This document shows positions 1,894-22,947 of a stretch of DNA of 64,000 nt, piece after piece. Every line of letters begins with the position of its first letter. Within the stretch, counting starts at the first letter, position 1. This DNA is from Dehalococcoidia bacterium (GTDB lineage: Bacteria > Chloroflexota > Dehalococcoidia > Lucifugimonadales > UBA2985). The notes under the pieces were generated by a model that did no database searches, was not told the origin of the DNA, and saw nothing but the letters and a program-made list of their open reading frames with translations. The DNA is taken from NCBI GenBank assembly GCA_034421015.1, contig DAOUKT010000003.1:5152-69151 (forward strand), written 5' to 3'. The translations under genes were made by a program, and so were the position numbers.

Positions 1894-4811
1894 CTCTTGT
1901 CCCTGCTGAACTGGTTTACCCTGCAGGCGTGCTTGAAGGCGCAGTATGCGGGGCAGATGTCCACTTGGGGAAACACCCTGAAATCGCCCGACTCCACGGA
2001 GTTGCGCACCTCTCCCGCGACAGTGACCACGTTCTCCAGGATTGCAGCGTCCTCCGGCTTGGAGGAGTCGATGTTCCACTGGCGTATGCCGGGGTCCAGC
2101 CAGGCGTAACGGGCGATGATCCTGCCGGCCCCGGTCTCCTTCCGGCCCAGGTACCCGTAAAGCTGAAGCTGCAGGCGTCGGCCGTCGGCCACCTCGGCCC
2201 TCCGTATCTGGCGGCCGGACTTGTAGTCCACGATGACGACAACGCCGCTGCCCTCGTCCAGCCTGTCGATTCCGGCGGTGACTCGCATGGGTGGATCAAG
2301 GTCCAGCGAGGCCAACACCTGCTTCTCGGCGCCAAGGATGCGTGTTACGCCCGCGGCTTCGCTCAGCCCGGCCTCCGTCTCCAGAAGCATCTCTATCTGC
2401 TGAAGGGTCGCATCCGCCTCCAGCCGCCACAGGGCGGCGCGCCCGAAGCCCATATCGGCCGGCGCCCGGTCCCATATCTCCCTGCCATTGGAGCGAAGGC
2501 GCGAGAGGGCTTCGCCCAGGTTCGCTTGAGTGAGGGCCCGTCCCTCGCTGATGAGAGGGTCCAGGGCGTCCTGAAGGATTTCGTGGACAACCGTGCCGCG
2601 CGTGGCGGCGTCCGCCTCGTCCATCTCCTCATCCACCTCCTGAAGGCGCAGGGCGTAGCGGCTGAAGAACTGGAAGGCGCACGTCCGATAGGACTCAAGA
2701 CGGCTGGCGCTCCACACGGCGTCCGGCCCGGTGAGGCGGGGCACGCGATCACTGGGCAGGACGCCCTCGTACTCACCGGCGTCACCAAAGGAGCGCCTGC
2801 GCTGCTCGATGTGGAACGCCTTTCTTGCGACGTGCCAGGCGTTGAGATTAGCGGGGCGAAGGACGCCGCCTTCGGGCCACTGCCGGGCGCAGGCGATGGC
2901 TAGCTCCCGGCGGGAGGCTGTCTGCTCGGGCGTCGGCTCGACGGCCGTGAGGCGCAAGTCCGGTTTGACCCGGTCCAGGTAGTAGGAAGCCGCCGCGGGA
3001 CGCCCCCTATCGTCCAGGCGAGTCTTCCACAGCGCCATCTCGCCCTCCGCCCGGCTGGACACGGCGTTCCAGAGCTCGTCCTCCGAGAGGCGGGGATCCG
3101 GCGGTAGCTCGAGGCCGGCGCGGCCCAGCGCCTCCATTGCCGCGCCGTCGAGAAGGGAAGTCGACGTGCGAGGGGCCGGGAACTCGCCCTCCACCAGCCC
3201 GCCCACGGCCACGAAGTCGAAGCGCAGGCCGTGGAGCGTGTGCATCGGAGCGAGGAACACGCCGCCCGGCTGGCCGATGAGGACGGCCGGGGCCTCCAGC
3301 CTGGCCTCCAGTCTGAGAAGGAAGGCCTCCAATGGCTCAGGTTCGCCGCCGAGAAACTCGTGTACGGAGACTATCTCCCGGAGATAGCCCCGAAGGGTCT
3401 CAAGCTCCGAGTCCACTCCGTTGAGACGCCGCGATCCGGGGTCGACGAGGGGCTGGCTGCCAAACAGGACCTCCTCCAACCTCCGAGCGTGCCCGGCCGG
3501 TGTGTCGGGGGGCTGCTCCAGCAGGTCGCGCAGCTCGCCTATTGCTGTCCTCATCCCGGCGGCGGCCCGTCGCATATCATAGCGGGCGTGGTCGGGCGTA
3601 CTGCCCTCGTCGGCCTCGCTCATCAGGCCTTCCGAGGCCCGCTCCAGGGCTTCCAGTCCCGCCCAGTTGTGATTCCTCCGGGCCCTCCGGGCGAATCGCG
3701 TCACGTCCTCCCGGGACATCTGCCAGCGCGCAAGATCGACGAACCCGCTGGAGAGCGCGCCAACCAGATCCTGGAGGCGCCAGCCGTCCTGGGCCAGGCG
3801 CAGCAGGCGTCGGAGCCACGCTCCCAGGGGACGGCTGCTGAGGCGTTCGCCGGCGGCTGGGTCAAGGGGCAGGTCGTACTCGGCGAAGACCTGCCGGGCC
3901 AGGCTGAGGTGAGGCGATACCTGGCGAAAAGTGACAGCGAAGTCGGACGGGCGCAGCGACGGGTTGTCCGTCAGGCGCTGCTTGATCTGGCGGGCGATGG
4001 CGCGCATCTGGCCTTCGCGGTCGGCTGCGCTGCCCGCGACCACAGTCGGAGTGTTCGGTGGAGCGTCTTCCAGGCGTTCCAGGTTGGCATTGGGGAAGAG
4101 GTTGACGAGCCTGGCGTAGTCGTGCCTGGACCGATGACCCGCGTCCGGGTCAAAGGTGATGTACAGCTCACTCCCCTCAGCCAGGGCCCTCAGAAGCTTC
4201 AGCTCCGTGCCGCGAAACAGCTGGAACCCGTCCACCAGGACTACGGGCGGCAGGGCCGCGCCCACATCCACAGCGTCCGCCGCCACCTCTGCAGCCTGCG
4301 AGGGGTGCGCCCACTGCCTCTCGGAAAGCTCGGCGACGTATGCCGCGTGGATGGCCGCGAGAGCCGCCAGGCTGCTTGAGCCGGTCCTGCCCGCGGCCTC
4401 CGAGAAGGCTTGCGGCTCGATGCCCTCGGCCAGCAAGTCGCGGATTGCGGCTCCCAGAAGCCCCACAAGGCCCCGGGATGAAGCAATTGGCTCGAAATAG
4501 GCCGCGGGCCCGCTGCGGATCTCACGCCGTATCGTCCGCGCCAGAAGCTCCTCGGCCACCGCCGCCGATGGAATGCTGGCATCGGAAGCCAGGTGGCGGC
4601 TGAACTGCCCGATGGTGGACACGCGCAGGCGGAGGGCAACTCCGCAGCTGGCAACCAGCCGCCGGCGGAACTGGTCGCCGTGGCGCAGCGTGGGCGTCAG
4701 CACAACGGCTTCGGCGAAGGGGTCGGCGTTGTAGAGGGCCGTCAGCCTTGCTATGACGGCGTCCGTCTTCCCGCTGCCGGGCCCGCCGGTGATGATTGTT
4801 GGGTTGGGCAT
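1884..4811 (-). CDS. addB: AddB-like helicase-nuclease subunit (Walker A N-terminus, C-terminal nuclease/Cys-cluster region)
   Basis: ORF track 1884-5522, with the start trimmed to ATG 4811 (MPNPTIITGGPGSGKTDAV). The 237 upstream residues are Gly/Val-rich antisense of the Pro/Thr linker of the neighbouring gene. The C-terminus ...VFPQVDICPAYCAFKHACRV resembles the AddB Fe-S Cys motif. The gene lies immediately upstream of addA with overlapping stop and start. Confidence 0.75.
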   Translation of the reverse strand: MPNPTIITGGPGSGKTDAVIARLTALYNADPFAEAVVLTPTLRHGDQFRRRLVASCGVALRLRVSTIGQFSRHLASDASIPSAAVAEELLARTIRREIRSGPAAYFEPIASSRGLVGLLGAAIRDLLAEGIEPQAFSEAAGRTGSSSLAALAAIHAAYVAELSERQWAHPSQAAEVAADAVDVGAALPPVVLVDGFQLFRGTELKLLRALAEGSELYITFDPDAGHRSRHDYARLVNLFPNANLERLEDAPPNTPTVVAGSAADREGQMRAIARQIKQRLTDNPSLRPSDFAVTFRQVSPHLSLARQVFAEYDLPLDPAAGERLSSRPLGAWLRRLLRLAQDGWRLQDLVGALSSGFVDLARWQMSREDVTRFARRARRNHNWAGLEALERASEGLMSEADEGSTPDHARYDMRRAAAGMRTAIGELRDLLEQPPDTPAGHARRLEEVLFGSQPLVDPGSRRLNGVDSELETLRGYLREIVSVHEFLGGEPEPLEAFLLRLEARLEAPAVLIGQPGGVFLAPMHTLHGLRFDFVAVGGLVEGEFPAPRTSTSLLDGAAMEALGRAGLELPPDPRLSEDELWNAVSSRAEGEMALWKTRLDDRGRPAAASYYLDRVKPDLRLTAVEPTPEQTASRRELAIACARQWPEGGVLRPANLNAWHVARKAFHIEQRRRSFGDAGEYEGVLPSDRVPRLTGPDAVWSASRLESYRTCAFQFFSRYALRLQEVDEEMDEADAATRGTVVHEILQDALDPLISEGRALTQANLGEALSRLRSNGREIWDRAPADMGFGRAALWRLEADATLQQIEMLLETEAGLSEAAGVTRILGAEKQVLASLDLDPPMRVTAGIDRLDEGSGVVVIVDYKSGRQIRRAEVADGRRLQLQLYGYLGRKETGAGRIIARYAWLDPGIRQWNIDSSKPEDAAILENVVTVAGEVRNSVESGDFRVFPQVDICPAYCAFKHACRVNQFSRDKRWR

Positions 4812-13388: not shown

Positions 13389-14474
13389 CTAGTCAAACAT
13401 CAGGACGGTGCGGGCAACCTCCCCGGCCTTCATCGCGCGAAACGCCTCGTTCACGTCCTCCAGCCGGCCGCGGCGGGTGATCATCTCGTCCAGCAGCAGG
13501 CGGCCCTGGCGGTAGAAGTCGATAAGCCGCGGCATGTCCGTGCGGAACCGGTTGGAACCCATGCCGCTGCCCTGTATCTTCCGCTCGCTGAGGAACATCC
13601 GCCCCTCGATTTCCACCTTCTGGCCCTGGGGGATTATGCCGATGACCGTTGCGGTGCCGCCAGGCGTCAGGGAGTAGAAGCACTGCTCGGCGGCGGTCTT
13701 GGATCCAATGGCTTCGAAGGAGTAGTCCACTCCGCCGCCCGTCATGTTCTGGATAGTCTCCACCGGGTCCTGTGACGAGGCGTCAACTACGTGGGTCGCG
13801 CCCACATCCAGGGCGTACTTGAGCTTCGGCTCCACTACGTCTACGGCGATGATCTGCCGGGCTCCGGCGATGCGCGCGCCCTGGACGGCCGAGAGGCCGA
13901 CGCCCCCCAGCCCAAAGACGGCGACGGTGGTTCCGGGTTCGATCTTGGCCGTGTTGATGACGGCCCCCACTCCCGTTATTACGCCGCAGCCGATGAGGGC
14001 TGCGCAGTCCAGCGGCATATCGTCGTCTATCTTGACCAGGGCGTTCTCGTGGACCAGCATCCGCTCTGCGAAGCTGGACAGGTTGAAGACCTGGTTGATG
14101 GGCGTCCCGCTTCCGGCGTAGCTGAGGCGCGGCGGGTCCGACTCCGTGCGGCGGGGTCGCTGGGAGCACCGGTTGGGATGGCCCGTCAGGCACTGGTGGC
14201 AGGTCCCGCAGAAGACGGACAGGCACCCTATAACGTGGTCGCCCGGCTTGAGGTAGGTGACTTGGTCGCCAACCGCTTCCACAATGCCGGCAGTCTCGTG
14301 GCCCAGTATGGCCGGGGGTGTCGTATTGGAGACGCCGTCCAGATAGTGGAGGTCGCTGTGGCAGACGCCACTGGCGGCTGTGCGCACCACGACCTCCCTT
14401 GGCATAACCTTGTCGATGTTGACCTCTTCAATGGTCAAAGGGGTGTGCGCTGCGTTGAAAACTGCCGCCTTCAT
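13389..14474 (-). CDS. zinc-dependent alcohol dehydrogenase (MDR family)
   Basis: ORF track. Contains GVCHSDLH, GHETAGIVEAVG, a C-x2-C-x2-C-x7-C structural zinc site and a GLGGVG Rossmann motif. Confidence 0.85.
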   Translation of the reverse strand: MKAAVFNAAHTPLTIEEVNIDKVMPREVVVRTAASGVCHSDLHYLDGVSNTTPPAILGHETAGIVEAVGDQVTYLKPGDHVIGCLSVFCGTCHQCLTGHPNRCSQRPRRTESDPPRLSYAGSGTPINQVFNLSSFAERMLVHENALVKIDDDMPLDCAALIGCGVITGVGAVINTAKIEPGTTVAVFGLGGVGLSAVQGARIAGARQIIAVDVVEPKLKYALDVGATHVVDASSQDPVETIQNMTGGGVDYSFEAIGSKTAAEQCFYSLTPGGTATVIGIIPQGQKVEIEGRMFLSERKIQGSGMGSNRFRTDMPRLIDFYRQGRLLLDEMITRRGRLEDVNEAFRAMKAGEVARTVLMFD

Positions 14475-14506
14475 AACGATTCTCTCCTCAAAGTGACTTG
14501 GCGGTC

Positions 14507-14515
14507 ATTATAGCA
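14507..14515 (-). promoter_or_regulatory. extended -10 promoter TGCTATAAT upstream of the ADH gene
   Basis: Minus-strand reading is GCGTGCTATAATGACC, 33 nt upstream of ATG 14474. Confidence 0.45.
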
Positions 14516-14541
14516 CGCAACTTAGGAGATTCCGCCAGTGG

Positions 14542-15867
14542 CTATCTGGCGCTGGAGGCAAGCTCCTGCCCCTTGTCGCCGGCCTTCGCCGGTGGCTTGG
14601 GGGGCGCGGCCGTGAGCATCAGGAGGCCGCACAGAATCCACGCGGTCCCGTAGACCACAAACGCGAGGTCGTAGGTCCCGTAGCGGTCCCAGATGAAGCC
14701 GCCCAGTAAGGGGCTGGAGGCGCCGACCACATTGCCTATTGGGGTCACGAACCCCCGGATGGCTCCCTGGTGCTGGCGCCCGAAGTAGGACGCCCAGGCC
14801 AGGTTGTTGATGGTGGGCCATCCCCCCATTGTGAGGCCGAAGAACACCGCGTACACGTAGAGCATGGTGAGGCTCTCGGCGATGATGAGGGAGTAGAGCG
14901 AGAAGCCGGCAGGTATGACGCACATTGGGATGACCCATCGGATGTGGATGCGCTCCGAAGTAAGCCCCCAGATGGGCTTTGCGAGAATGGCGAAGAAGGC
15001 CACCGTCGCCGCCACTGCCGTAGCCGTAGCAAGGTTGAAGCCCTTGTCCTGGAAATATGCCACCTGGTGGAAGATGACGGGCATCAGCCCCATGCTGCCG
15101 AAGGACTGGACCAGGAGCATTATCCACAGCGTCCGCGTTCTGAAGGCCTCCTTGACTGTCCAGGGGTACTCGGTCGCGCCCTGGCCTCCCGGGCCGCCGG
15201 CTCCGCCACCTGCTTTATCTGGCGAGTCCCCGTCCGGCAGGAGGCCGATGTCCTCCGGCTGGCGTCGCATGAATAGGGCGGCCATCGGCGTGATCGCCAG
15301 CATCAGGAACATGCCGAGCAGCACCCAGGCCGTCCGCCACCCGAACTCGCCCACGAACCAGCCCGCCATCGGCGCTATGATGAAGCCGCCGGTGGATATG
15401 CCCATTGTCCCTATCGCCATTGCCCTGCCGCGTTTCCTGATGAACCACTTGGAGATTACGGCCGGTCCCACCAGCTGACCGCCCATTGTGAACATCGCCA
15501 GGCCGAATATCACGCCGTACAGGAGGTAGAAGTGCCACAGCTCCTGCACCAGGGACGTGGACATGAGCACAATCCCGGAGAGGATGCTGCCTACGGTTAT
15601 CAGGATTCTGGGGCCGTGTTTCCTGTCTACCAGCAGGCCCAGGAATGGCAGGAGCGGGAGCAGGGCTACGCGAAAGACGGCGATGGCCGAGAACTCCGTT
15701 CGGGAGATGCCCAGGTCCTCGCTCATGGGGACAATGAAGAAGGAGAGGCCGTAGCCGCTGATGCCGGCCGTGGTCATAGCGGTGCTGAAGGTTATGAGGA
15801 CAATGATCCAGCCGTAGAAGAACCGCTTGCCTATCAGACTCTGCGCTAACCTGTCGGGACTTGCCAT
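14542..15867 (-). CDS. MFS transporter
   Basis: ORF track. About 12 hydrophobic helices with a central Gly/Pro-rich cytoplasmic loop. Confidence 0.8.
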   Translation of the reverse strand: MASPDRLAQSLIGKRFFYGWIIVLITFSTAMTTAGISGYGLSFFIVPMSEDLGISRTEFSAIAVFRVALLPLLPFLGLLVDRKHGPRILITVGSILSGIVLMSTSLVQELWHFYLLYGVIFGLAMFTMGGQLVGPAVISKWFIRKRGRAMAIGTMGISTGGFIIAPMAGWFVGEFGWRTAWVLLGMFLMLAITPMAALFMRRQPEDIGLLPDGDSPDKAGGGAGGPGGQGATEYPWTVKEAFRTRTLWIMLLVQSFGSMGLMPVIFHQVAYFQDKGFNLATATAVAATVAFFAILAKPIWGLTSERIHIRWVIPMCVIPAGFSLYSLIIAESLTMLYVYAVFFGLTMGGWPTINNLAWASYFGRQHQGAIRGFVTPIGNVVGASSPLLGGFIWDRYGTYDLAFVVYGTAWILCGLLMLTAAPPKPPAKAGDKGQELASSAR

Positions 15868-15954
15868 GGCACCTCACTGCCGTGATGAATGAGCCAATGA
15901 TACGCCAACGGCATGGGGCATGGAAGGGGCGGCGAAGGGGCTAGGCGAAGCCGT

Positions 15955-17766
15955 CTAGCTGCTCAGCTGTCCCAGGATGCTGGAGACTGAAGCGTGATCG
16001 TAGTTCTGACTGGCGACGTACTTCCATGTAATCACGCCGTCGGTGTTCACAATGAATGTCGCCGGCGCTGCGAGGCCGTCGCCGAGGAGGTTGAAAACTC
16101 CGTACGTCCGGGGCACCTGGGTCGAGGTGTCATACAGTACAGGGAAAGGGATGCCAAGCTGCTCCACAACTCCTGAGGCCCCACTAAGGTCGTCAACGCT
16201 GACGGCAGCCACTTCAGCGTTGAGGGCGGTTATGTCGCTGTATCTGCTTGTCAGCTCAACGAGCTGAGAGCGGCAGAATGTTCACCAGAAAGCTCTATAG
16301 AAGACCACGACCACCTGCTTGTCACCCCTGAAGGACTCCAGGGCGATGTCCACGCCTTCCGAGGACGGCAGCGTGAAGCCCGGGGCGAGCTCTCCTACGG
16401 CGGTGCCCACCGTAGGGGCGGGCGTCGGGGTAGGTGTGGGCGTCGGAGCGACGGTAGGCGTGGGTGGTGGCGTTGGAGTAGGAGTAGGAGTAGGAGGTGC
16501 AGTCGGTATCGGAAGTGCCGTTGGCGGCGCTAAAGTAGGTGTTGGTGTGGGCATTACATCAGCGGTAGGAAGAGAGACGTGTGTAGACAGCGCCGATAGC
16601 TGGGCCTGAATCTCCGAGAAGGGAGGCATGTCGCCAATGGCTCCGGCAACGTACTTCCACGTTATGACTCCCTGCTTGTCTACAATGAAGGTTGAAGGTG
16701 TACCGAGGCCGTCGTCCAGAAGGTCAAAGACCTCGTAGGACTGGGTCACGACAGTCGAGGGGTCGTACAGGATGGGGAAGGGGAATCCCAACTGCTCAAC
16801 CACCTTGGAGGCAGCCTCCAGGTCATCCACGCTTATCGCGAGGACCTCGGCGTCCAGCGCCTCTATTGTGTCGTAGTTCCTTGTCAGCTCAACGAGCTGG
16901 TCCCGGCAGTGGGTTCACCAGAAGGCCCGGTAGAAGGCCAAAACTACGTTCTTTTCGCCCCTGTAGGACTCCAGGGACTGGTCCATCCCGGCGGTGGACG
17001 GCAGCGTGAAGCCGGGCGCCAGGTCTCCAACGTCTGTGCCTACCACAAGGTCAGGCGTCGGAGTGGCCGCCGGCTCCGGCGTGGTGACCATCTCGACCGA
17101 CTGCAATCCGGCCAGCTGCTCCTTGACGGTGGACAGCTCCGGCCGGTCGCCGGCTCTGTCGCCAATGTACTTCCACCTGATAGTCCCCTCGGTGTCGATG
17201 ATGAACACGGAGGGGGCTGCGAGGTCATCGTCCAGGAGGTTGTACACCTGGTAGGACTGCGTCACCTCCGTTGAAGTGTCGTACAGGACTGGGAAGGTGA
17301 CCTGCCACTCTTGCACCACGGTGACGGCGTCCAGGAGGTCGTTGACGCTGACGGCCAGGACCTCTGCGTTGAGCGCCCTGATGTCCTCGTGGGCCTCTGT
17401 CAGCTCAACGAGCTGATCGTGGCAGAATCCTCAGAAGGAGCCTCTGTAGTAGACCAGGACAACGTTCCTGTCGCCACGGTAGGACTCCAGGGACACGTCC
17501 GTGCCGGAGGCTGAGGGCAGGGTGAAGCCGGGCGCCGCGTCGCCTACTTCTGCGCTGGGCTGCATATCCGGTTCGGGCGTAGAGGCGGGAGCCCGGGTTA
17601 CGGTGGCCGCGGGAGTTTCGCCGGAAACCGGCAATGGAGCGGGCGTCGCCGTTGGCGCAGTGGTCGCGGTCGGGATAGTGGTTGGCGTGGGTTCCTCGGA
17701 GCCGCACGCGACCGCCGTCGCGATCGCGATGGCGCTTATCACCAGTAGCAGGGCTGCTCTGCGCAT
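15955..17766 (-). CDS. exported three-domain PRX_like2/AhpC-TSA-type thioredoxin-fold protein with three in-frame UGA codons read as selenocysteine (UxxC x3)
   Basis: Four same-frame ORFs (17431-17799, 16915-17319, 16282-16830, 15955-16212) are separated only by the single TGA codons 17431-33, 16915-17 and 16282-84. I translated the gaps and found no other stops. The TGA context is YYRGSF-U-GFC, FYRAFW-U-THC and FYRAFW-U-TFC. The N-terminus is a signal peptide, [21 protein letters not shown], and Pro/Thr linkers separate the domains. The start is either ATG 17766 or GTG 17799. Confidence 0.7.
16249..16284 (-). other. UGA codon 3 plus candidate bacterial SECIS hairpin
   Basis: Same 18-nt CAGCUCGUUGAGCUGACA element starting 16 nt after the UGA. 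Confidence 0.55.
16882..16917 (-). other. UGA codon 2 plus candidate bacterial SECIS hairpin
   Basis: Same 18-nt CAGCUCGUUGAGCUGACA element starting 16 nt after the UGA. Confidence 0.55.
17398..17433 (-). other. UGA codon 1 plus candidate bacterial SECIS hairpin
   Basis: UGA is followed by 15 nt and then CAGCUC-GUU-GAGCUG-ACA. The 18-nt element is identical in all three modules. Confidence 0.55.
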
Positions 17767-17938
17767 ACAGATATAGTAACCCAAACGTCGGGCAGTCACA
17801 ATGCCGCGCGTGCCTACATCGTTGTTCAGCTGATGCGCTAAACTGGGACTCGCAAGCGTATCCCGATGGCCGCGAGCGCGCCCGTCGGTGGATTGTCGTC
17901 AAAATAGAGGTTTCCGCGCTTGTGTTTGTTCAATTAAG

Positions 17939-17947
17939 TGATATACT
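17939..17947 (+). promoter_or_regulatory. extended -10 TGATATACT (with TTGTGT -35, 16-nt spacer) upstream of the acyl-CoA dehydrogenase gene
   Basis: Read directly from the sequence, about 70 nt upstream of ATG 18017. Confidence 0.35.
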
Positions 17948-18016
17948 ACGGGGCAGATGCTCTCAGGGTGGAGAAGAAAGAACAGGTGGAGAGTATTCGC
18001 AGAAAAGGAGGTTGAC

Positions 18017-19258
18017 ATGGACTTTTCGCTGCCCTATACGGAGGAACAGGAGACGTTTCGGAAGGAGGTTCGCGCTTGGCTCGAGGCCAACACTCCCGAA
18101 GAGATGAAGATACCCATAGACGCCAACGACACCACTCAGGAGATGCGGACCTTCTGGGCGGAGAAGCACCTGGAGTTGGGCAGAAAGGGATGGCTGTACC
18201 CCACCTATCCCAAGGAGTACGGCGGCGGCGGGCTTTCCGCCGACCACGAGACCATTCTGGACGAGGAGTTCGCCAGGGCCAGGGCGCCCCGCTCCTATGG
18301 CAACACCTACTCCTTCGGCAGCATCATGGTGTGGGGCACCGAGGAGCAGAAGCAGAAGTTCCTCGTTCCCTTCATGAAGGGTGAGAAGAAGACCCACCAG
18401 AGGCTGACCGAGCCCCAGGGCGGCGCCGACCTGGCAAACGTCCAGGGCAGGGCCGTCCGCGACGGCGACGACTGGCTGCTCACGGGCCAGAACGTCTTCA
18501 TCAGCTGCTGGGGCGACGAAGACTACTACCCCGGCGTGATGATGACCGACCCGGAGGCTCCTCGCCACCGAAACCTCGGTTTCTTCATGGTCCCGAACAA
18601 CGTTCCGGGCCTGGAGATCCGGGCGATGGACCTGCTTCCCTCTTCTGGCCGCAGCCCGGGACCGGGGCAGAAGGCCATCTTCATGGACAACGTGCGAGTG
18701 CCCGCTGACCACATGATCGGCGGAGACCACCAGGGGTGGCAGGTTATGCAGACGCTCCTGGAGGCCGAGCACGGCGGCCGCGGCCGGGCGTTCCCCAGGG
18801 ACGACAACGTGGACAGCTTCGTTAACTACGTCAAGGAGACGGATCACGACGGCGGGAAGCTGGGTTGCGATCCCGTAGTCCAGCAGAACACCATGGACGC
18901 CGTAATCGACGCCCACGTCCAGAACCTGTTCCAGCGGCATACCTACTGGATGTACCAGAACCGCATGGAGATGAGGGGGGAGAACAACTACACCAACGTC
19001 CACAGCCGGGAGTCCGACCTGCGGAATTCCCGAAGGTTCCGGGACGTCATGGGGCTGTACGCCTTCCTCAACACCAAGGAGCCCAACGCTCCTGAGGGCG
19101 GGATGCACGAGGTGAACCAGCGCTCCACGGCGGGCCAGCGCCACGCCGGCGGCAGCACCAACATCGCCAAGGTCATCCTGGCGCGGCGCATCGGCATCAG
19201 CCGCACCCAGGAGAGGGCGGCCCCCACGGCCTCCACGGCGACCAACCTCGGCAGCTAG
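18017..19258 (+). CDS. acyl-CoA dehydrogenase
   Basis: ORF track 17957-19258. The start was moved to ATG 18017, which follows an AAGGAGG RBS. ...LTEPQGGADLANVQGRAVRDGDDWLLTGQNVFIS matches the ACAD middle-domain pattern. Confidence 0.85.
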   Translation: MDFSLPYTEEQETFRKEVRAWLEANTPEEMKIPIDANDTTQEMRTFWAEKHLELGRKGWLYPTYPKEYGGGGLSADHETILDEEFARARAPRSYGNTYSFGSIMVWGTEEQKQKFLVPFMKGEKKTHQRLTEPQGGADLANVQGRAVRDGDDWLLTGQNVFISCWGDEDYYPGVMMTDPEAPRHRNLGFFMVPNNVPGLEIRAMDLLPSSGRSPGPGQKAIFMDNVRVPADHMIGGDHQGWQVMQTLLEAEHGGRGRAFPRDDNVDSFVNYVKETDHDGGKLGCDPVVQQNTMDAVIDAHVQNLFQRHTYWMYQNRMEMRGENNYTNVHSRESDLRNSRRFRDVMGLYAFLNTKEPNAPEGGMHEVNQRSTAGQRHAGGSTNIAKVILARRIGISRTQERAAPTASTATNLGS

Positions 19259-20487: not shown

Positions 20488-22947
20488 CTAGTAAAGCGCC
20501 TTCTCCGCCACCAGCCGCTCTATCTCCTGGTCCGTCAGGCCCAGCAGCCCGCCGAACACCTCTCTGTTGTGCTGCCCCATCTCCGGGCATGGTCCCACCA
20601 CGCGGCTGGGCGTTTCTGACAGCCGGATTGTAGGTCCCGGGTGCTCCAGCACGTCGAAGGCGGGCCGGTGGTCTACGGTCAGGACGTAGTCCCGAGCGCG
20701 GAGATTGAGGTCGTAGTACAGGTCCTCGGCGTTGGACACCACGCCCGAAGGCACGCCGCCTTTCTGCAGCGTGCGCATCGCCTCGTAAGGCGTGCGTTCG
20801 CCGGTCCACTGGCCTATGCGGGCGTTCATCTCGTCCAGGTTGGCGAGCCTACCCTCCAGCGTGGCGAATTTGTCGTCTCTGGCCCAGTCCGGGTCCTCCA
20901 TAGCGGTGACCAGCGACCGCCAGTGCTCGTCCGTGTAGCAGGCGATGGCGCACCACGCGTCGTAGCCCTGGCAGGGGAACACGTCGTGGGGAGCGGCGTT
21001 GGGGTTGCGGTTGCCGGTGGGCTCCCAGATGTGGCCGTTGAGGGAGTAGTCGGCGAAGGCCACGCCCATCGTCGCCACCAGCCCCTCCAGCTGCGCCATC
21101 TCGATCATCTGGCCCTTGCCGGTGCGGTCCCGGTACTCCAGGGCCGAGAGCAGGGCACTGGCGCCGGCGGCCGCGGCGATGAAGTCAGGCAGGGGCACCT
21201 TGGGCCGCGTGCGTCCGTCCGACTCCGGGTGCGCCCACAGATTCATCAGGCCGGTGTAGGCCAGCAGGCTCTGGCCGTAGGAAAGCTGGTCCACGTTGGG
21301 GCCTGAGTTGCCGAAACCGGGCATGCTCAGGTAGATGATGCGGGGGTTGATCTCCTTCATGCGCTCGTAGCCAACGCCCCATCCCTCAAGGACGCCGGAG
21401 CGGAAGTTCTCCACAACGCAGTCGCACTCCTTCAGCAGCTTCTCCGCGAGGGCGATTCCCTCCCTGTCGGCCATGTTGAGGGTGATGGAGCGCTTGCCCC
21501 GCTGGATCTCGGCGAAGTTGAAGCTGAACGCCCCCTGCGCCTGCCCGCGATCGGGGAGCATGTGCGACTCGACCTTGAACACCTCCGCGCCAAGCTCGGC
21601 CAGGTAGCGAGTCATGAACGGCCCGGCCCAGACGCGGCTGAAGTCCAGGATGCGCATTCCCTTTAGAGGCAGGGGCGGCTCGGCGTCATGGGCTGGCGCA
21701 GCCGGCTCGGGAGACTCGCTCTTTCGCGGCGACTCTGACCACTCCTTGATCACGGTCTCGGTGTGCTCGCCCAGGAGCGGCGCGGGGCGGTATAGCCGCC
21801 AGGGGCTTTCCCCCATTCGGAACGGCGCGCCGGGTATCTCGTAATGGCCCGCGGCGGGATGCTCCACGCTGACGAAGTAGTCGCGGACCCGCAGGTGTTC
21901 GTCTTCAAGCAGGTCCTTTATGGTCATCAGAGGCGATGCCGGGATATGGCGACGCTGCGCCTCCCGGTAGAAATCCATCTTGGTGAACTGCTCGGAGAAC
22001 TCCGAGACAAGCGCGGAGAGGACATCGCTGTTCTCCCGGCGGAAGTCCCGGTCCTTCCAGATGTCGTCCTTGAGCGCGTCGTTGTCCATCCACTCGTAGA
22101 GGGCCTCCACGTGGCGCGGGTAGCCGGGCTGCATGTACACGAAGCCGTCCATGCAGGGGTAGGTGTTTGTCGGGGCGAGGTTTGTGGTTGCGCCAACCCG
22201 ACGGTTGATCTGGACGCTGTTGGCGTATCGCCCGAAGTAGGCCAGGATGTTGGCAAGCACCTCCTGGATCGACACCTCGATGCGCTGGCCCCGGCCGGAC
22301 TCGTTTCGATACCGGAGCGCCGTGAGGCTGGCCATAGCCGCGTGCTGGGCCGCAAGCTGGTATCCCTGGGCCAGGGGCGCAAGGACGGGCCTCATGTCCG
22401 GGTCTCCGTAGCCGTACATCAGCCCGCCAAGGGCCTGCACAATCAGCTCGCCGCCCGGATAGCCGCTGTAGGGGCCCCATAGCCCAAAGGGCGAGATGGT
22501 AGTGTAGATAAGGCCGGGGTTGATTTCCTTGAGGGCGTCGTAGCCCAGGCCCAACGAGTCCAGGTCCCAGGACGTCCCGTCCTCCAGCAGGAAGTCGGCG
22601 GCGGCTGCCAGCGACCGGAAGCGTTCCCGGTCGGCGGGTTCATCCAGGTCCAGGACGATGCCGCGCTTGTTGAGGTTATACGTGAGGAAGGTGATGCTGC
22701 GCTCCGGGTCGGGGTTGCCGCCCGCGTAGGGCGCAAGACGCCTACCATCGTCGCCTGCCGGTGGCTCCACCCGGACGACGTCCGCGCCCAGGTCTGCCAT
22801 CAGCCGGCCGCAGTACTGGGACCCGGGCCCCGTGAGGTCCAGGACCCGGAGGTGGGCCAGCGCTCCGCCCACGTCAGCGTCGCATATATCGCAGGCCCTG
22901 GCGTCTACGGGTATGTCCTTTTCGCAGATTGTACAATGCTTGTTCAT
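20488..22947 (-). CDS. tandem double-domain family III (CaiB/BaiF) CoA-transferase with N-terminal Cys4 knuckle
   Basis: ORF track, 819 aa. The N-terminus is MNKHCTICEKDIPVDARACDICD (CxxC-x10-CxxC). Two CoA-transferase halves follow (LRVLDLTGPGSQYCGRLMADLGADVVRVEPP and MRILDFSRVWAGPFMTRYLAELGAEVFKVES), joined by a Pro/Glu/Ser-rich linker. Confidence 0.85.
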   Translation of the reverse strand: MNKHCTICEKDIPVDARACDICDADVGGALAHLRVLDLTGPGSQYCGRLMADLGADVVRVEPPAGDDGRRLAPYAGGNPDPERSITFLTYNLNKRGIVLDLDEPADRERFRSLAAAADFLLEDGTSWDLDSLGLGYDALKEINPGLIYTTISPFGLWGPYSGYPGGELIVQALGGLMYGYGDPDMRPVLAPLAQGYQLAAQHAAMASLTALRYRNESGRGQRIEVSIQEVLANILAYFGRYANSVQINRRVGATTNLAPTNTYPCMDGFVYMQPGYPRHVEALYEWMDNDALKDDIWKDRDFRRENSDVLSALVSEFSEQFTKMDFYREAQRRHIPASPLMTIKDLLEDEHLRVRDYFVSVEHPAAGHYEIPGAPFRMGESPWRLYRPAPLLGEHTETVIKEWSESPRKSESPEPAAPAHDAEPPLPLKGMRILDFSRVWAGPFMTRYLAELGAEVFKVESHMLPDRGQAQGAFSFNFAEIQRGKRSITLNMADREGIALAEKLLKECDCVVENFRSGVLEGWGVGYERMKEINPRIIYLSMPGFGNSGPNVDQLSYGQSLLAYTGLMNLWAHPESDGRTRPKVPLPDFIAAAAGASALLSALEYRDRTGKGQMIEMAQLEGLVATMGVAFADYSLNGHIWEPTGNRNPNAAPHDVFPCQGYDAWCAIACYTDEHWRSLVTAMEDPDWARDDKFATLEGRLANLDEMNARIGQWTGERTPYEAMRTLQKGGVPSGVVSNAEDLYYDLNLRARDYVLTVDHRPAFDVLEHPGPTIRLSETPSRVVGPCPEMGQHNREVFGGLLGLTDQEIERLVAEKALY

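Follow-up and report, generated by a model that had tools for sequence, protein, structure and literature searches.

The selenocysteine insertion sequence (SECIS) of E. coli fdhF carries a bulged U in its upper stem and G23/U24 in an apical loop of 4-6 nucleotides (nt). The consensus for bacterial SECIS elements (bSECIS; bSECISearch; Zhang & Gladyshev 2005, summarised in PMC13188914) comprises an upper stem of 4-16 base pairs (bp) capped by a loop of 3-9 nt, a G within the first two loop positions, usually as N1-G-[G|U]-N-N2 where N1 pairs with N2, a distance of 16-37 nt from UGA to loop, and a minimum free energy (MFE) of -7.5 kcal/mol or lower. One class of predicted selenoproteins comprises Prx-like thiol:disulfide oxidoreductases (PF00578, UxxC), the 'Prx-like 1' of the GOS and Sargasso studies (PMC2398784, PMC1088965). 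A review lists one or two selenocysteine (Sec) residues for this family, and gives one Sec for most prokaryotic selenoproteins and two or three for a small subset (PMC13188914). Here we describe a gene with three in-frame UGAs, each followed by a short hairpin, in a 64,000-nt stretch of DNA from a Dehalococcoidia bacterium (GCA_034421015.1, contig DAOUKT010000003.1, positions 5,152 to 69,151; hereafter the window). Judging from their shape, their position and their conservation among homologues, the three hairpins are very probably bacterial SECIS elements, one for each UGA.

All three TGAs lie in one frame on the minus strand (17766..15955), each in one of three homologous modules. A sequence-only reading of the window had reported that an identical 18-nt element follows each UGA after 15 nt, and our search confirmed this. 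The 18-mer CAGCTCGTTGAGCTGACA is present exactly three times in the window, at 17398-17415, 16882-16899 and 16249-16266 on the minus strand, and the spacer from TGA to element is exactly 15 nt in all three modules. There were no further matches in the 64 kb with up to three mismatches allowed, and none of 100 dinucleotide shuffles contained three or more matches. The codons that flank the element do differ among the modules, as had been stated, both before it (GAT/GAC/TCT) and after it (GAG GCC / AGG AAC / AGC AGA). With the U of UGA numbered as nt 1, the gene, its UGAs and its hairpins are as follows.

15955..17766, minus strand: predicted selenoprotein gene of 604 codons, from ATG at 17766 to TAG at 15957-15955, assigned by translation and Pfam.
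17431..17433, minus strand: UGA 1, putative Sec codon of module 1, in the motif YYRGSF-U-GFC.
16915..16917, minus strand: UGA 2, putative Sec codon of module 2, in the motif FYRAFW-U-THC.
16282..16284, minus strand: UGA 3, putative Sec codon of module 3, in the motif FYRAFW-U-TFC.
17400..17416, minus strand: putative SECIS hairpin 1, U CAGCUC GUU GAGCUG A, nt 18-34, 7 bp including U18-A34, MFE -9.1 kcal/mol.
16885..16899, minus strand: putative SECIS hairpin 2, CAGCUC GUU GAGCUG, nt 19-33, 6 bp, with 18:34 being C/A and unpaired, MFE -8.2 kcal/mol.
16251..16267, minus strand: putative SECIS hairpin 3, U CAGCUC GUU GAGCUG A, nt 18-34, 7 bp, MFE -9.1 kcal/mol.

Folding reproduced the GC-rich 6-bp stem and G-first 3-nt loop that had been drawn from the sequence, at -8.2 to -9.1 kcal/mol. 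The sequence-only reading had named an unstable fold as grounds for abandoning the hairpin; the fold is stable, with z-scores of -2.5 to -3.7 for the 21-nt segments of modules 1-3, and none of 200 shuffles was as stable as hairpin 3. An alternative fold has a stem of 5-6 bp and a 5-nt loop, compared with 6-7 bp and a 3-nt loop. The U-A pair said to extend the stem of module 3 was seen, and it occurs in module 1 as well; the 60-nt fold of module 3 also allows an extra UCUGC/GCAGA lower stem. Scores for the 60-nt context are weaker (-0.5 to -2.45, the latter in module 3). In an alignment of the three modules at the DNA level the mean column identity is 81%; no invariant stretch is longer than the 18-nt run, and the runner-up has 12 nt. 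Where the three modules share an amino acid with degenerate codons, the codon is identical in six of six cases inside the element and in 22 of 62 outside it (P ~0.002).

We sampled homologues by a scan of one genome per species that kept 80 loci and left out about 390 further tblastn-positive loci. The full 603-aa protein was discarded as a query because its Pro/Thr-rich linkers swamped the search, which returned 3 matches only. A single-module protein query gave 116 matches, most of which are fragments ending in …FYRAFW or …FYRGFW because gene calls cut at the TGA. The 80 loci come mostly from metagenome-assembled genomes (MAGs) of Dehalococcoidia/Chloroflexota, and also from Spirochaetia, Blastocatellia, Bryobacterales, Gemmatimonadota, Poribacteria, Rokuibacteriota and one deltaproteobacterium. 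A hidden Markov model combined with a regular expression, run over six-frame translations, located 123 modules in these loci, with one, two or three modules per gene. The homologous Sec site is TGA in 119 of the 123 and TGC or TGT in 4, and the conserved domain runs on in frame past the homologous TGA. For the RNA analysis, 112 unique Sec modules were aligned without gaps.

The helix recurs throughout this alignment. Pairs 19:33, 20:32, 21:31, 22:30 and 23:29 are each present in 95-100% of the modules, and the complete 5-bp core (nt 19-23 with 29-33) in 99 of 112; pair 24:28 is present in 59% only. The six-pair helix is 90.3% paired, compared with 15-42% after a shift of the 3' arm by 1-3 columns (15-45% when the seven-pair helix described next is included). 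It holds 38 double-change cells, compared with 13.8 ± 2.6 after shuffling (0/500 as high), and the seven-pair helix that includes 18:34 is 88.4% paired and holds 63, compared with 22.9 ± 3.5 (again 0/500). Covariation in homologous genes had been proposed as a check on the hairpin, and a blind mutual-information scan of all column pairs in ~100 nt ranked 18:34 and 21:31 first, both in helix register. The composition of 18:34 is GC 61, UA 16 and CG 6, and that of 21:31 is GC 68, AU 29 and GU 9. When GC-AU switches are placed by parsimony on a neighbour-joining tree built from the module proteins, 21:31 and 18:34 each need 11 or more independent ones; therefore, the covariation is not one inherited event. 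The switch at 21:31 turns CAG…CUG into CAA…UUG, which is synonymous on both sides.

The alignment also shows which parts of the 18-nt unit matter. The identity of all 18 positions stands within the window, and it has to be refined for the family, in which the constrained unit is the helix 18-23/29-34 with a G[G/U]N loop. The loop opens with G in 104 of 112 modules, and its second base is G or U in 102. Neither its third base nor the ACA codon is constrained across the family, except for A34 in its pairing with U18. The spacing of 15 nt from UGA to element, which puts the loop 21 nt from the UGA, is kept in nearly all homologues. No in-register covarying column pair was found outside 18-34 that would indicate a conserved lower stem toward the UGA, and the UUCUG/CAGAG and UCUGC/GCAGA extensions of modules 1 and 3 are not conserved in the family. 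The counts of G-U and A-C within the helix (21 versus 11) mildly favour the sense RNA strand. Off-register Sec modules of other phyla mostly form a displaced hairpin instead (L049, L051, L055, L062), which in L049 has 7 bp and a CGGGA loop.

Constraint on nucleotides beyond the QLVELT peptide had been claimed from the three copies alone, and the family bears it out. When the peptide was held fixed and synonymous codons were redrawn from the usage of the same genes in 2000 runs, 31 ± 4.5 complete 5-bp cores were expected (maximum 47) compared with the 99 seen, and 10.6 ± 3 complete 6-bp stems compared with 63. The codon choices behind this excess are clear. At codon 5, 108 of 112 modules use a Leu codon with a final G (background 57%); at codon 2, 73% write Leu as CTC (background 26%); and Glu at codon 4 is written GAG 72 times and GAA once.

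Homologues without Sec provide a further control, and the sequence-only reading had made their loss of the hairpin a test of its proposal. We assembled 27 metagenomic forms with VFYR[GA]FW-C-xx-C, 2 Asp forms (P0001 and P0002) and the 4 Cys modules, 31 unique sequences in all. The hairpin is not kept in them: the complete 5-bp core is present in 5 of 31, compared with 99 of 112 Sec modules (Fisher p = 3e-14), and the core together with a G[G/U] loop in 2 of 31, compared with 97 of 112 (p = 5e-17). The peptide at the QLxEL site drifts in Cys forms (ELLSY, HLSAL, QLADL and others), and those that keep QLAEL often use codons that do not pair, such as CAGCTT…GAACTT. The closest non-Sec relatives are the Asp forms P0001 (L110 2412) and P0002 (L111 1819), which share ~50% identity, read FYRA[YS]W-D-PFC and have an N-terminal PPC-type domain. 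Their hairpins are degraded to CAGATC..GAGTTG and CATCTC..GAATTG. Selection acting on the sense strand of the mRNA has thus preserved the hairpin throughout a large family of selenoproteins.

How does this element compare with described SECIS elements? The proposed fit to the bacterial SECIS model holds on all four consensus features and gains from the covariation in the family: the window hairpins have 6-7 bp and a 3-nt loop, C-GUU-G at the apex, 21 nt from UGA to loop, and -8.2 to -9.1 kcal/mol. Over 60 nt, 99% of family members reach -7.5 kcal/mol or lower. Like the bSECIS model, the element is a stem-loop within the coding region just 3' of a UGA that would encode Sec, with a loop of 3-5 nt that starts with G-U or G-G. 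It differs in lying at the small end of the range, with 5 bp invariably paired family-wide and no conserved lower stem, and in keeping one sequence, CAGCUN-GKN-NAGCUG, in different phyla; from one gene to another, bSECIS elements usually have no sequence in common. With the SECIS elements of E. coli fdhF and fdnG it shares a short fixed distance 3' of the UGA and an apical G-U (here G25, U26). Unlike fdhF, the window stem is perfectly paired and shorter, with no bulged U, a loop of 3-5 nt and no long lower stem.

The gene product can likewise be placed. Judged by its sequence, the predicted protein belongs to the Prx-like PF00578 UxxC class of predicted selenoproteins, with which it shares the AhpC/TSA-Redoxin fold and Sec as the first residue of U-x-x-C. 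Both marks of that class were found, namely the Pfam domain above threshold and an in-frame TGA at U-x-x-C that is replaced by Cys in some homologues. It departs from the Prx-like family in having three tandem modules after a lipoprotein signal, with 3 Sec and 3 SECIS predicted. Three Sec in one bacterial protein is rare, yet inside the reported range. Compared with classical Prx, the Sec sits at the conserved Thr of TxxC, and the classical Pro is replaced by Arg (FYR). NCBIfam NF040769 (SelL-related redox protein) is the top NCBIfam model for each module. We rejected membership in it: a module taken singly reaches 63-69 bits where the cut-off is 120, and aligns to positions 3-101 of 173 only, and the 177 bits of the whole protein are three partial module matches summed, so the protein is a relative and not a member. 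Altogether, the hairpin is real and under selection, yet it is an expected feature for a known kind of gene.

Several observations weigh against reading the hairpins as SECIS elements. The window hairpins are very short and have no counterpart to the bulged U of fdhF in E. coli, and the 60-nt z-scores of modules 1 and 2 are unremarkable. Rfam returned no matching family at the gathering threshold in the window and no SECIS family at E <=10 in 15900-17800. Kinship among the sequences inflates the shuffle-based significance, an effect that the tree-based switch counts address. RNAalifold gave no consensus on all 112 sequences; it finds the 18-23/29-34 helix (5-nt loop, -7.95 kcal/mol) only with the first 80 rows, mostly Dehalococcoidia loci. 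We take the failure on the full set to be due to divergent clades with shifted register. One Cys homologue, L074 (Haliangium sp. MAG, TGC, 3070-3140), keeps a pairing-competent CAGTTC-ggc-GAGCTG, which may be a 'fossil' SECIS left after a recent Sec-to-Cys replacement. Finally, there is no tRNA-Sec, and indeed no tRNA, in the window, and selA, selB and selD were not seen among the 20 window open reading frames (ORFs) scanned, so we infer the Sec competence of the genome from the gene family only.

Could the 18-nt identity arise without any RNA function, from a conserved QLVELT peptide, codon bias, and recent duplication or short-tract gene conversion? The three modules are paralogous at 81% mean column identity, QL-x-EL is a conserved helix motif for which AhpE has ELDQL at the same place, and the three copies also agree at the ACA codon and the last loop base, slightly more than the family-wide constraint asks for. 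Moreover, the orthologue of module 3 in the nearest genome (L002) reads CAGCTA-ggt-AAGCTG-gca. Local gene conversion in the window lineage is possible, because this element differs from that of the window while its flanks are similar. Such conversion, or shared ancestry, may account for the final 3-4 bases of identity at most, and does not explain the element itself. As an account of the whole, peptide and conversion are already largely refuted by the peptide-fixed resampling (31 cores against 99/112), by compensatory synonymous switches made at least 11 times, and by the non-pairing codons of Cys and Asp homologues whose peptide is identical or alike (QLAEL as CAGCTT..GAACTT is an example), and we regard that account as very unlikely. 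A functional hairpin need not bind SelB, however; it could instead make translation pause to aid domain folding or export, affect the stability of the mRNA, or act at the DNA level as a palindrome that a protein binds. A stem of 5-7 bp is tiny and generic, no SelB was identified among the 20 ORFs scanned in the window, and the excess of G-U over A-C favours sense RNA mildly only. These functions are nonetheless improbable, since the structure is tied to TGA forms and lost in Cys and Asp forms, the UGA lies 15 nt away in almost every module, and 97 of 112 modules carry the bSECIS G[G/U] loop, for which a pause hairpin or a palindrome has no need.

It could also be argued that the UGAs are not read as Sec, and that the locus is a pseudogene, encodes separate products, is read through by a near-cognate tRNA or uses a reassigned code. 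Public gene calls do break the gene at each TGA (fragments P0004-P0070), and Sec machinery was not seen in the window. Against this stands the codon itself: at the redox-motif site, 119 of the 123 modules, from different phyla, carry TGA and none carries TAA or TAG, and the domain is conserved on both sides; conservation of TGA at one site over many lineages is not expected of pseudogenes. Neighbouring genes use TGA as a normal stop. The TGAs lack a start codon or ribosome-binding context after them, and the Pro/Thr linkers continue in frame. The Sec site also aligns with Cys in the rare non-Sec relatives. We therefore consider it extremely unlikely that the UGAs are read as anything else. TGA is the ordinary stop in 6 of 14 Pfam-supported window genes, and since neighbouring genes stop at it normally, the three in-frame TGAs require specific recoding. 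Taken together, 15955..17766 most likely encodes one 603-residue selenoprotein with three Sec.

By analogy with the E. coli/Moorella mechanism, we infer that SelB would bind the three hairpins and that Sec would be inserted at the three UGAs. With a UGA in the ribosomal A site, the hairpin would sit just outside the mRNA entry channel, where its apical G-U/G-G loop could be bound by the C-terminal winged-helix domain of SelB carrying GTP and Sec-tRNA(Sec). The SelB·GTP·Sec-tRNA(Sec) complex would then deliver Sec, out-competing termination by release factor 2, and the helix would be melted and translated as Gln-Leu-Val-Glu-Leu. A bacterial SECIS acts only locally, so that three modules call for three elements, and tandem duplication of a module would carry the UGA and its SECIS along as one unit. 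A crude scan of the window for other selenoproteins (TGA by a Cys motif, open frame, hairpin) gave nothing convincing beyond the three sites.

We also suggest, though it is less likely than not, that CAGCUN-GKN-NAGCUG may be a family-specific, portable 'UGA + SECIS cassette', in which the needs of the RNA have fixed the peptide Q-L-[V/G]-[E/Q/K]-L and compactness allows tandem duplication. This peptide is near-invariant in Sec forms from Chloroflexota, Spirochaetota, Acidobacteriota, Gemmatimonadota and others, and it decays in Cys forms. If the suggestion is right, whole modules duplicate in tandem to yield exported proteins with two or three Sec. Unusually efficient Sec decoding in Dehalococcoidia would then be implied, because the yield of full-length protein is the product of three recoding events.

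Two groups of homologues vary the redox motif. In L058, L075, L079, L080 and L081 (Anaerolineales/Chloroflexota, at ~3100 of each locus), a subfamily with FF[QE]RCG-U-GPD has Asp for the downstream Cys and a Cys two residues before Sec, giving C-x-U; its hairpin is kept as CAACUG-GUU-CAGUUG or CAACUC-GUG-(C/G)AGUUG. In L073 and L077 (Poribacteria MAGs, ~3088-3170) the motif is U-x-x-S (TW-U-PNS) and the canonical hairpin register is lost. L073 has a CGCC/GGCG hairpin slightly upstream instead.

What would the protein be? The gene product consists of a lipoprotein signal and three AhpC/TSA-Redoxin modules, with Pro/Thr-rich linkers between them, all in frame. Pfam reports AhpC-TSA PF00578 at 304 bits (cut-off 26) and Redoxin PF08534 at 222 bits, in three stretches each. 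The remaining features of the gene are the following.

17704..17766, minus strand: lipoprotein-type signal peptide, assigned by sequence pattern, with a lipobox-like AVAC then G (…IATAVAC|G).
17101..17556, minus strand: Redoxin module 1, from module alignment and Pfam.
16591..17040, minus strand: Redoxin module 2, from module alignment and Pfam.
15955..16407, minus strand: Redoxin module 3, up to the stop codon, from module alignment and Pfam.
16408-16590 (long) and, shorter, 17563-17703 and 17041-17100, minus strand: Pro/Thr-rich low-complexity linkers.

Each UGA stands in the context FYR-x-x-[WF]-U-x-x-C-x-x-QLVELT. The nearest solved structure is M. tuberculosis AhpE, and in the alignment to it the Cys of U-x-x-C corresponds to the peroxidatic Cys and the Sec to the conserved Thr. 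With the predicted lipobox at AVAC|G, the product would be exported and lipid-anchored, and would carry three U-x-x-C centres that form selenenylsulfides. It is probably a thiol:disulfide or peroxide reductase.

Our work reveals no new mechanism and is a well-documented addition to a known kind of element in a known selenoprotein class. It does offer a very clean natural data set on the minimal needs of a bacterial SECIS, with 112 variants, an invariant 5-bp core, a G[G/U]N loop and a fixed distance. An element this short, which costs only the peptide QLxEL, could aid the design of compact SECIS tags for recombinant selenoproteins. The annotation of this gene and of 119 homologous TGA-containing modules in ~80 genomes, mostly Dehalococcoidia, should be corrected because public gene calls split the gene into fragments.

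The public calls P0004-P0070 show selenoprotein genes broken at every TGA in dozens of MAG annotations. The chimeric calls among them start with the C-terminal two-thirds of a module, continue through a linker and end in the N-terminal third of the module that follows.

The nearest genome, L002, has a three-module gene in the same neighbourhood (window 13389-19258, L002 566-6567). In both, an acyl-CoA dehydrogenase gene is divergent, and genes for an MFS transporter and a zinc alcohol dehydrogenase follow downstream. A Cys-form Rdx/SelW-like gene (CTQC) also lies close by in L002. Elsewhere in the window, and unrelated to the hairpins, an 819-aa ORF at 20488-22947 on the minus strand has two CoA-transferase family III stretches (625 bits) and is apparently a fused double domain.

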